Shown piece after piece: positions 58,759 to 61,191 of a stretch of 64,000 bases of DNA (the first letter of the stretch is position 1; each line of letters starts with the position of its first letter). The stretch lies in assembly GCF_988242995.1 (NCBI RefSeq), contig NZ_OZ547043.1; one strand, given 5' to 3'. A program made the translations under genes and the position numbers. The notes beneath the pieces were generated by a model. That model was not told the DNA's origin. It did not search any database and saw only the letters and a list, made by a program, of their open reading frames with translations.

Positions 58759-61191
58759 ATGAGTGTGATTGCGCAGGCAGGGGCGAAAGGTCGTCAACTG
58801 CATAAATTTGGTGGCAGTAGTCTGGCTGATGTGAAGTGTTATTTGCGTGTCGCGGGCATTATGGCGGAGTACTCTCAGCCTGACGATATGATGGTGGTTT
58901 CCGCCGCCGGTAGCACCACTAACCAGTTGATTAACTGGTTGAAACTAAGCCAGACCGATCGTCTCTCTGCGCATCAGGTTCAACAAACGCTGCGTCGCTA
59001 TCAGTGCGATCTGATTAGCGGTCTGCTACCCGCTGAAGAAGCCGATAGCCTCATTAGCGCTTTTGTCAGCGATCTGGAACGCCTGGCGGCGCTGCTCGAC
59101 AGTGGTATTAACGATGCGGTGTATGCGGAAGTGGTGGGTCACGGTGAAGTGTGGTCGGCGCGCCTGATGTCTGCGGTGCTTAATCAACAAGGGCTGCCAG
59201 CGGCCTGGCTTGATGCCCGCGAGTTTTTACGCGCTGAACGCGCTGCGCAACCGCAGGTTGATGAAGGGCTTTCTTACCCGTTGCTGCAACAGCTACTGGT
59301 ACAACATCCGGGTAAACGTCTGGTGGTGACCGGGTTTATCAGCCGTAACAACGCTGGTGAAACGGTGCTGCTGGGGCGTAACGGTTCCGACTATTCCGCG
59401 ACACAAATCGGTGCGCTGGCGGGTATTTCTCGTGTAACCATCTGGAGTGACGTCGCCGGGGTATACAGTGCCGACCCGCGTAAAGTGAAAGATGCCTGCC
59501 TGCTGCCGTTGCTGCGTCTGGATGAAGCCAGCGAACTGGCGCGTCTGGCGGCTCCCGTTCTTCACGCCCGTACTTTACAGCCGGTTTCTGGCAGCGAAAT
59601 CGACCTGCAGCTGCGCTGTAGCTACACGCCGGATCAAGGTTCCACGCGCATTGAACGCGTGCTGGCCTCCGGTACTGGTGCGCGTATTGTCACCAGCCAC
59701 GATGATGTCTGTTTGATTGAGTTCCAGGTGCCCGCCAGTCAGGATTTCAAACTGGCGCATAAAGAGATCGACCAAATCCTGAAACGTGCTCAGGTGCGTC
59801 CACTGGCGGTTGGCGTGCATAACGATCGCCAGTTGCTGCAATTTTGCTACACCTCAGAAGTGGCCGACAGTGCGCTGAAAATCCTCGACGAAGCGGGATT
59901 ACCTGGCGAACTGCGCCTGCGTCAGGGGCTGGCGCTGGTGGCGATGGTCGGTGCAGGCGTCACCCGTAACCCGCTGCATTGCCACCGCTTCTGGCAGCAA
60001 CTGAAAGGCCAACCGGTCGAGTTTACCTGGCAGTCCGATGACGGCATCAGCCTGGTGGCAGTACTGCGCACCGGACCAACCGAAAGCCTGATTCAGGGGC
60101 TGCATCAGTCCGTCTTCCGCGCGGAAAAACGCATCGGCCTGGTATTGTTCGGCAAGGGCAATATCGGTTCCCGCTGGCTGGAACTGTTCGCCCGTGAGCA
60201 GAGCACGCTCTCGGCGCGTACCGGCTTTGAATTTGTGCTGGCAGGTGTGGTGGACAGCCGCCGCAGCCTGTTGAGCTATGACGGGCTGGACGCCAGCCGC
60301 GCGTTAGCCTTCTTCAACGATGAAGCGGTCGAGCAGGATGAAGAGTCGCTGTTCCTGTGGATGCGCGCCCATCCGTATGATGATTTAGTGGTGTTGGACG
60401 TTACCGCTAGCCAGCAGCTTGCTGACCAGTATCTCGATTTTGCCAGCCACGGTTTCCACGTCATCAGCGCCAACAAACTGGCGGGAGCCAGCGACAGCAA
60501 TAAATATCGCCAGATCCACGACGCCTTCGAAAAAACCGGGCGTCACTGGCTGTACAACGCCACCGTCGGTGCGGGCTTGCCGATCAACCATACCGTGCGC
60601 GATCTGATCGACAGCGGCGATACTATTTTGTCGATCAGTGGGATCTTCTCCGGCACGCTCTCCTGGCTGTTCCTGCAATTCGACGGTAGCGTGCCGTTTA
60701 CCGAGCTGGTGGATCAGGCGTGGCAGCAGGGCTTAACCGAGCCTGATCCGCGTGATGACCTTTCCGGCAAAGACGTGATGCGCAAGCTGGTGATTCTGGC
60801 GCGTGAAGCGGGTTACGACATCGAACCAGATCAGGTGCGCGTGGAATCGCTGGTGCCTGCCCATTGCGAAGGCGGTAGCATCGACCATTTCTTTGAAAAC
60901 GGCGATGAACTTAACGAGCAGATGGTGCAACGGCTGGAAGCGGCCCGCGAAATGGGGCTGGTGCTGCGCTACGTGGCGCGTTTCGATGCCAATGGCAAAG
61001 CGCGTGTGGGCGTGGAAGCGGTGCGTGAAGACCATCCGCTGGCATCACTGCTGCCGTGCGATAACGTCTTTGCCATCGAAAGCCGCTGGTATCGCGATAA
61101 CCCTCTGGTGATCCGCGGACCAGGCGCAGGGCGCGATGTCACCGCCGGGGCGATTCAGTCGGATATCAACCGGCTGGCGCAGTTGTTGTAA
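58759..61191 (+). CDS. metL: bifunctional aspartokinase II / homoserine dehydrogenase II
   Basis: 810-aa ORF starting 2 bp after metB. Confidence 0.95.
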   Translation: MSVIAQAGAKGRQLHKFGGSSLADVKCYLRVAGIMAEYSQPDDMMVVSAAGSTTNQLINWLKLSQTDRLSAHQVQQTLRRYQCDLISGLLPAEEADSLISAFVSDLERLAALLDSGINDAVYAEVVGHGEVWSARLMSAVLNQQGLPAAWLDAREFLRAERAAQPQVDEGLSYPLLQQLLVQHPGKRLVVTGFISRNNAGETVLLGRNGSDYSATQIGALAGISRVTIWSDVAGVYSADPRKVKDACLLPLLRLDEASELARLAAPVLHARTLQPVSGSEIDLQLRCSYTPDQGSTRIERVLASGTGARIVTSHDDVCLIEFQVPASQDFKLAHKEIDQILKRAQVRPLAVGVHNDRQLLQFCYTSEVADSALKILDEAGLPGELRLRQGLALVAMVGAGVTRNPLHCHRFWQQLKGQPVEFTWQSDDGISLVAVLRTGPTESLIQGLHQSVFRAEKRIGLVLFGKGNIGSRWLELFAREQSTLSARTGFEFVLAGVVDSRRSLLSYDGLDASRALAFFNDEAVEQDEESLFLWMRAHPYDDLVVLDVTASQQLADQYLDFASHGFHVISANKLAGASDSNKYRQIHDAFEKTGRHWLYNATVGAGLPINHTVRDLIDSGDTILSISGIFSGTLSWLFLQFDGSVPFTELVDQAWQQGLTEPDPRDDLSGKDVMRKLVILAREAGYDIEPDQVRVESLVPAHCEGGSIDHFFENGDELNEQMVQRLEAAREMGLVLRYVARFDANGKARVGVEAVREDHPLASLLPCDNVFAIESRWYRDNPLVIRGPGAGRDVTAGAIQSDINRLAQLL

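Follow-up and report, generated by a model that had tools for sequence, protein, structure and literature searches.

In the window analysed here, a 64,000-nucleotide stretch of DNA from NCBI RefSeq assembly GCF_988242995.1 (contig NZ_OZ547043.1), the metL gene shares its last 37 bp with a convergent open reading frame (ORF) of 376 amino acids. The 37-bp overlap is probably a derived form of an old convergent overlap with metL that came about by the loss of 14 nt, and is probably not the scar of a recent insertion. The features that make up the overlap are listed below, with positions numbered from the first nucleotide of the window.

58759-61191, plus strand: metL, bifunctional aspartate kinase/homoserine dehydrogenase II, 810 aa (ORF listing and RefSeq annotation).
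61155-62285, minus strand: conserved ORF of 376 aa, labelled 'cytoplasmic protein' in RefSeq (ORF listing).
61155-61191, both strands: tail-to-tail overlap of metL and the 376-aa ORF, 37 bp.
61185-61191, both strands: GTTGTAA, the metL end (..TTG TAA) and the antisense of the conserved (D)Y366-N367 codons of the ORF.
61155-61184, minus strand: lineage-specific ORF tail N368-D376 and stop (NCASRLISD, stop), encoded by antisense frame 2 of metL.

A preliminary description of the sequence had reported the 37-bp overlap, and both the ORF listing and the raw sequence bear it out. On the ORF side, the shared segment consists of the stop codon (61155-57), 11 sense codons (Y366-D376) and one base of the D365 codon. 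The minus strand reads GA[T] TAC AAC AAC TGC GCC AGC CGG TTG ATA TCC GAC TGA, which encodes (D)YNNCASRLISD and the stop. The metL stop codon TAA (61189-91) lies opposite the third base of the Asp365 codon and the first two bases of the Tyr366 codon, and the ORF terminates at TCA within the metL codons ATT-CAG (61155-57). The last ORF residues (NCASRLISD) are antisense metL, as had also been claimed, and are not homologous to tails of the family elsewhere. Both partners are genes under selection, with ratios of nonsynonymous to synonymous divergence (dN/dS) of 0.01-0.05 for metL and 0.09-0.14 for the ORF (8 genomes), and the ORF is unbroken in more than 1000 E. coli genomes. The two genes qualify as a convergent overlapping pair: they lie on opposite strands, have 3' ends in common and are both real. 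An antisense open run of nine added codons, taken alone, is statistically not remarkable; the recurrence of the identical junction in other Escherichia species and in Pseudocitrobacter exceeds chance.

Comparisons were made with 120 database homologues, a 43-sequence alignment and a locus context scan of one genome per species. Paired with a divergent 5'-nucleotidase gene, the ORF sits between metL and metF in at least eight genera, namely Klebsiella, Kosakonia, Phytobacter, Citrobacter, Superficieibacter, Pseudocitrobacter, Salmonella (arizonae, a decayed copy) and Escherichia. Carriers of the pair at this site include K. pneumoniae, K. oxytoca, K. spallanzanii, Kosakonia, two Phytobacter species, about ten Citrobacter species and Superficieibacter. 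The Klebsiella, Kosakonia and Phytobacter carriers just named have an overlap of 26 bp that uses the other antisense frame. The order on the metL strand is then …YTGTAA (the metL stop), a 7-nt spacer and GTTRTA (the antisense of YN), and the ORF tail is xxL-TAAAPGG followed by a stop, its last eight codons running antisense through the final 26 nt of metL. In C. braakii and Citrobacter sp. wls619, the ORF frame passes through an inserted repetitive extragenic palindromic (REP) element and ends in metL at the 26-bp position. Pairs of REP elements or bacterial interspersed mosaic elements (BIMEs) occupy a metL-ORF gap of 26-91 bp in other Citrobacter and in Superficieibacter, and at several of these loci the ORF runs into the REP and acquires tails such as DLPGGAAAYRAYG. 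The 37-bp form is found in E. coli, E. whittamii, Escherichia sp. MOD1-EC7003, Pseudocitrobacter vendiensis, P. cyperus and one Citrobacter-labelled metagenome-assembled genome (MAG). The junction (CAGTTGTTGTAR followed by TCCTGRG) is identical in the window, NY1601, E. whittamii, MOD1-EC7003, P. vendiensis, P. cyperus and the Citrobacter MAG. The 26-bp and 37-bp geometries differ by exactly 14 nt, the 37-type being the shorter.

A simple path from one geometry to the other can be proposed. A cassette consisting of the zinc-ribbon ORF, a 132-bp spacer and the divergent 5'-nucleotidase gene would have long resided between metL and metF in Enterobacteriaceae. In the ancestral state the ORF core would have ended in …YN, with a 7-nt spacer to the metL stop and the tail TAAAPGG. 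A precursor that combined the Escherichia metL end GTTGTAA with a core ending in GAT-TAC-AAC would read GTTGTAA-N7-GTTGTAA. One repeat and the spacer may then have been lost, by slippage or by microhomology recombination between the GTTGTAA copies, one at the metL end and the other the antisense of GAT-TAC-AAC. After such a loss the YN codons would fall on the last metL codons, the antisense frame would shift and the ORF would read NCASRLISD, its stop having moved from TCA/TTA in ATC/ATT-AAC to TCA in ATT-CAG. The GTTGTAA at 61185-61191 would be the junction microhomology, the surviving copy of a 7-bp direct repeat. Both the direction and the mechanism of the deletion are proposed from comparison of sequences.

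Copies of the cassette at other sites in the genome bear on the ancestral state. These adjoin kdsA in E. albertii and Escherichia sp. E3659 and mtfA in a Klebsiella sp., and further non-metL sites are present in Enterobacter, Pluralibacter and Silvania. When the non-metL loci are anchored on the YN codons, all display …TGTAA exactly 7 nt from GTTRTA. Upstream is a colinear decayed copy of ATT CAG TCG GAT ATC AAC CGN CTG GCG CAG YTG CTG TAA, the last 13 codons of metL. This metL fossil extends over the last 13-16 codons, or about 40-48 nt, and is in the 26-bp geometry; in E. albertii it reads GCTGTAA-GTTTACT-GTTGTAA. Local alignment of fossils to metL ends gives scores of 36-41 at four loci vs a shuffle maximum of 26 (0 of 500 shuffles), and three more non-metL loci have weaker colinear matches. 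A blastn search with full metL against 1.5 kb past the ORF at 11 non-metL loci found nothing beyond the terminal 40-48 nt. The ORF tails at these loci (consensus xKLTAASGD, stop) resemble the 26-bp-overlap tail. Given the metL fossil, the dispersed copies therefore appear to derive from a metL-adjacent ancestor with 26-bp geometry. The preliminary description had looked to the C-termini of homologues to tell a native overlap from one created by a junction, and here the outcome, in spirit, goes against a junction origin: the 37-type tail is not general, in keeping with that description, yet overlap with metL appears to be native to the ORF family.

In a midpoint-rooted neighbour-joining (NJ) tree built from the protein core, the 37-type clade, to which the mosaic ORF of E2348/69 belongs, is sister to the fossil-bearing clade. 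Because both are nested among 26-type lineages, the 26-bp form is taken as ancestral. When the window is compared with P. cyperus, synonymous divergence (dS) amounts to 1.04 in the ORF, 0.71 in the nucleotidase gene, 0.79 in metL and 0.87 in metB. Since the values for the ORF and the nucleotidase gene resemble those for metL and metB, the 37-bp junction is likely to be old.

At the amino acid level, the last residues of the conserved ORF core are Tyr366, which is invariant, and Asn367, which is nearly so, and length and sequence vary after YN. Among the 120 homologues and in the 43-sequence alignment, the tail NCAS/RRLISD is confined to window-type proteins and P. cyperus. The overlap has five variable sites among eight 37-type loci. 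All five are synonymous in metL. Four fall on third codon positions in metL and the ORF alike, and the fifth, a change of CGG to AGG, replaces R by L in the ORF tail. By codon inspection, the S/R polymorphism of the tail lies at 61173, the third base of the Arg codon of metL in which this change occurs. As overlap variation is all synonymous in metL, the new ORF tail appears to be a passive passenger of metL constraint.

Within E. coli, the metL-metF interval has three states, as found by a megablast search of window positions 60600-63000 against 5,426 complete genomes. The window type, with the order metL, overlapping ORF and divergent 517-aa UshA-like 5'-nucleotidase, is represented by 1180 genomes that match the entire query. 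About 659 genomes have a larger form, at 80-90% identity, as in E2348/69, where the order is metL, a tsx-like gene, two nucleotidase genes, a 374-aa ORF homologue, a nucleotidase gene and metF. The larger form is the genomic region 'GR 31 metL..metF' of extraintestinal pathogenic and avian pathogenic E. coli (ExPEC/APEC), with Tsx and three UshA-like nucleotidases (PMC12928451). That paper is silent on the ORF and the overlap, and no paper was found that discusses the overlap. The rest of the genomes are of the K-12 type, in which the match ends at window position 61192. Thus the left junction, previously placed at about 61192, is confirmed by the K-12 alignment, as is the absence of the islet from K-12. 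A blastn search with the K-12 spacer reveals 197 bp of unrelated sequence in K-12 vs a 3010-bp islet in NY1601. The right homology break is about 150 bp upstream of metF, which extrapolates to about window position 64203, just past the window end.

No similarity to the islet was detected in the K-12 metL-metF spacer, and a blastn search of the 197-bp K-12-specific intergenic segment for islet remnants gave no match. Because the segment holds no islet remnant, it is phyletic distribution alone that points to islet loss in K-12; K-12-like E. coli may be without the islet through loss or replacement. Within the 197-bp K-12 spacer (4594-4790 of the K-12 locus excerpt, L003) are a weak hairpin/T-run and a REP-like palindrome, GCCGGATTAAGCGTTTACGACGAATCCGGC. 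The K-12 annotation also has a 44-aa 'hypothetical protein' at 4731-4865 of the same excerpt, which spans position 4791, where homology to islet strains restarts. The window metL is 94-97% identical to that of K-12 from about 59000 on, vs about 99% in metJ/metB, and its dS to K-12 is 0.14 vs 0.057 for metB. Because metL identity to K-12 drops beside the islet, the islet appears to be linked to a divergent metL haplotype. Introgression of the window metL from E. whittamii or Escherichia sp. MOD1 was considered and rejected, as the window metL is no closer to either than to K-12.

A potential RNA secondary structure is found just past the metL stop.

61206-61273, plus strand: composite hairpin and U-rich tract within the ORF coding sequence (folding).

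An outer 13-bp stem pairs 61206-61218 with 61252-61264, an inner GC-rich stem-loop is at 61222-61249, and the U-rich tract GUUUAUGUA is found directly after the hairpin, at 61265-61273. When 61180-61290 of the metL strand is folded, the hairpin (61206-61264) has a free energy of -41.8 kcal/mol and a z-score of -4.7, with 0 of 200 shuffles as stable. Across folds the z-score is -4.0 to -4.7; the stem is long with an AU-rich base, and GUUUAUGU comes next. The hairpin is a candidate metL terminator or 3'-end stabiliser, which may have been pushed into the ORF coding sequence where no intergenic DNA remains. In view of this structure, it is doubtful that a metL terminator has little room, as had been stated earlier. 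The homologous 100 nt were folded at 38 loci for comparison of z-scores. All seven 37-type loci have z-scores of -2.6 to -6.0, and a strong hairpin is confined to loci with no intergenic DNA left. Klebsiella 26-type loci have z-scores of -1.5 to -5.4 and a hairpin, GCGCCCUG-N7-CAGGGCGC, that is followed by a U5 run in K. pneumoniae; Citrobacter loci with intergenic REPs are at about -0.5, and non-metL loci at +0.7 on average. A search of 60500-62600 against Rfam at a permissive threshold gave no match. Folding downstream of the ORF stop, inside metL, revealed no structure (z -0.75). Predicted ORF transcripts therefore probably run antisense into metL until Rho or collision stops them.

Several points weigh against derivation of the 37-bp form by a 14-nt loss, or against the role proposed for the hairpin. 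The intermediate GTTGTAA-N7-GTTGTAA was found beside a live metL in no genome recovered, the nearest sequences being the fossils of E. albertii and SCPM-O-B-8794. Clade relations in the midpoint-rooted tree are approximate, and the ORF is a recombination mosaic. The P. vendiensis ORF is 92% identical to that of the window, with metL just about 85% identical; because the ORF is so much closer than metL, some of the sharing between genera was probably horizontal and not vertical. Furthermore, an intermolecular microhomology insertion would yield the same junction as a deletion in place. As to the hairpin, its lower stem is long and AU-rich, and the tract has just 5 U in 8. A consensus terminator scan of 60700-62600 made no call after metL, its loop limit of 8 nt being the reason, and the hairpin came to light through folding alone. 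The 37-type loci are phylogenetically non-independent, and 26-type loci of Kosakonia and Phytobacter (-0.7 to +0.6) have no comparable hairpin.

The preliminary description explained the overlap by a fresh insertion: foreign DNA would have entered E. coli right after the metL stop, and the ORF, having lost its own end, would have continued into the backbone as far as the next stop. K-12 and most E. coli are without the islet, homology breaks at 61192, the G+C content of the ORF is 0.42-0.45 compared with 0.58-0.60 for metL, and the ORF tail is antisense metL, all of which would be in accord with such an event. The islet-linked metL allele is also divergent, as expected if the whole segment came in by flanking recombination, and the cassette, being present at several other loci, moves. 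Thus the region resembles a genomic islet in its absence from K-12-type relatives, its sharp homology break and its atypical base composition, but departs from one in that the site is occupied in at least eight genera and dS to P. cyperus is like that of core genes. An insertion in E. coli is nonetheless unlikely, and this part of the preliminary description is not borne out. Other Escherichia species and Pseudocitrobacter have exactly the same junction; across the genera that have the cassette at this locus it mostly overlaps or nearly abuts metL, in many with the 26-bp overlap; and the metL fossil in copies elsewhere argues for movement outward from the metL locus. In addition, no integrase, tRNA or insertion-type flanking repeats were seen at the islet, the only hallmark of mobility being a sub-threshold IS1-type zinc ribbon.

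If the 37-bp geometry were the ancestral one, the 26-bp form would have arisen by insertion or duplication of 14 nt. The difference is symmetric in principle, and tandem duplication of a 14-mer starting with GTTGTAA would also give two repeats. Duplication requires likeness, however, and the 7-nt spacers of 26-type loci and fossils (GCGTCGC, CCGCTGC, GTTTACT) are unlike the 7 nt after GTTRTA; moreover, the 26-bp geometry is found in three deep lineages and in the fossils of the sister clade, the 37-bp geometry in one clade only. This polarity is extremely unlikely. It can also be asked whether the overlap is kept because it is regulatory, antisense transcription or polymerase collision coupling nucleotide scavenging to the met regulon in the manner of an excludon. 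The persistence of overlap or close abutment across genera, as well as the probable extension of ORF transcripts into metL, would agree with this. But size and frame of the overlap vary (26 bp, 37 bp or a REP-filled gap of 26-91 bp) with neither gene lost, and the cassette functions at loci without metL, which makes maintenance for regulation very unlikely.

The protein encoded by the ORF has two N-terminal Cys clusters, of which the second (residues ~74-105, CxxC…CxxC) matches IS1/InsA-type zinc ribbons below threshold. For the window ORF, the scores are 21.3 bits for NF050000 (cut-off 28) and 20.5 bits for NF033558 (cut-off 100), with a weak match to PF03811, all below the curated cut-offs. 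One distant member of the family is above the Pfam cut-off (33.3 vs 26.1 bits). Searches of Pfam, NCBIfam and PHROGs gave just these sub-threshold zinc-ribbon matches, a PDB sequence profile search gave nothing significant, the rest of the protein being without a sequence relative of known structure, and no DDE catalytic domain was matched by sequence searches. An AlphaFold2 (AF2) model built from the 43-sequence alignment is poor, with a predicted local distance difference test (pLDDT) value of 56, and Foldseek comparison of it with the PDB gave weak RNase-H-fold hits (E above 2e-3, template modelling (TM) score ~0.2), taken as no more than a hint. At 50% identity the family falls into 153 clusters, a small number. 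Purifying selection acts on the ORF (dN/dS as above), and its C-terminal domain is uncharacterised. As a working guess, made with low confidence, the protein may be a DNA-binding regulator of the nucleotide-scavenging cluster, derived from a transposase accessory protein. A bolder proposal is that the ORF/nucleotidase unit is a mobile cassette born beside metL, whose edge gene encodes a domesticated or still active IS1-like protein, with an InsA-type zinc ribbon and a possible RNase-H-like fold, that aids its spread among chromosomal sites and genera, and whose left end is the ~48-nt metL fossil brought along from the donor site; this is quite improbable.

The mosaic structure of the ORF can be followed along its length. 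Positions 61192-61412 are like P. cyperus (81-89%), whereas 61412-62000 diverges from both P. cyperus and E2348/69, which are themselves 88-94% identical there. Starting near 62009 and continuing to the right across the nucleotidase gene, identity between the window and E2348/69 is 84-99% and for the most part exceeds 91%.

The constant partner of the ORF and the DNA between the two genes are as follows.

62418-63971, plus strand: UshA-like metallophosphatase/5'-nucleotidase, 517 aa, constant divergent partner of the ORF.
62286-62417: divergent ORF-nucleotidase intergenic region, 132 bp.

The nucleotidase has both the Metallophos (PF00149, 46.7 bits) and 5_nucleotid_C (PF02872, 133.6 bits) domains above cut-off, and a hydrophobic N-terminus suggests that it is exported. 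The intergenic spacer has a length of 132 bp at all loci retrieved through exact protein look-up, and its identity over 14 genomes of about 10 genera is about 80%. Three blocks of the spacer are invariant: an inverted repeat, CAACGA-N10-TCGTTG, followed by ATTTTG (62293-62314); a perfect CRP-core-like TGTGA-N6-TCACA (62343-62358); and TTTCAGAACGTAA.

The number and state of cassette copies vary between genomes. The ORF is single-copy in most genomes, and E. coli SCPM-O-B-8794 and Escherichia sp. MOD1-EC7003 have two cassette copies each, the 37-type copy at metL being joined by another at a second locus. The second copy in SCPM-O-B-8794 carries the metL fossil, and that in MOD1-EC7003 is apparently interrupted. 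Copies elsewhere, e.g. at the E. albertii kdsA locus, come with additional nucleotidase paralogues and a Tsx channel gene. Just past the metL stop at six Citrobacter loci, REP/BIME pairs are present in the gap, with REP-encoded ORF tails such as DLPGGAAAYRAYGSCHM followed by a stop. The metL-metF copy of Salmonella enterica subsp. arizonae is decayed or rearranged; only ORF residues ~126-368 are recognisable, and the ORF end is 927 bp from the metL stop.

The metL/ORF pair resembles known bacterial convergent overlapping pairs in which a stop was lost or shifted. Real genes on opposite strands share 3' ends, the codons of the neighbouring gene determine the sequence of a short, unconserved extension, and the overlap would have arisen from a small frame-shifting indel. 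It differs in an unusually legible history, with 26-bp and 37-bp forms, a 14-nt difference and a fossil of the partner gene in dispersed copies. With the ExPEC 'GR 31' region, the window has in common the site, the right-hand 5'-nucleotidase (97.9% amino acid identity, dS 0.17) and an ORF homologue. The ExPEC/E2348-69 form, however, has three extra genes between metL and the ORF, the ORF is 374 aa with the tail ESLTPSC and a stop and makes no contact with metL, and a canonical terminator is present after metL. The CxxC…CxxC ribbon of the ORF is like that of the IS1 InsA and IS1595 zinc-ribbon proteins, but the ORF has no sequence-detectable catalytic domain, is single-copy in most genomes and is always paired with a nucleotidase gene. 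In position and presumed role, the hairpin at 61206-61273 is similar to REP/BIME elements and bidirectional terminators between convergent genes; Citrobacter has REP pairs at exactly that site, and in E2348/69 a perfect hairpin is present there together with a GC-stem/T-run terminator. Unlike REP/BIME elements, the window hairpin is inside a coding sequence, is not a REP and has no Rfam match.

The metL/ORF overlap belongs to an ordinary class of features; its history can be traced, and general principles are unchanged by it. It does correct the tempting but mistaken idea that a fresh insertion can be recognised by an overlap with a core gene. A further use is as a worked example of the evolution of a convergent overlap, in which loss of 14 nt between 7-bp repeats would switch the antisense frame and rewrite a protein tail with the core gene unharmed. 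The embedded hairpin provides a testable case of a terminator that may have been forced into the coding sequence of a neighbour. The metL fossil, in turn, is a simple marker of the metL-metF interval as the source locus of the nucleotidase/Tsx cassette that is scattered in Enterobacteriaceae.

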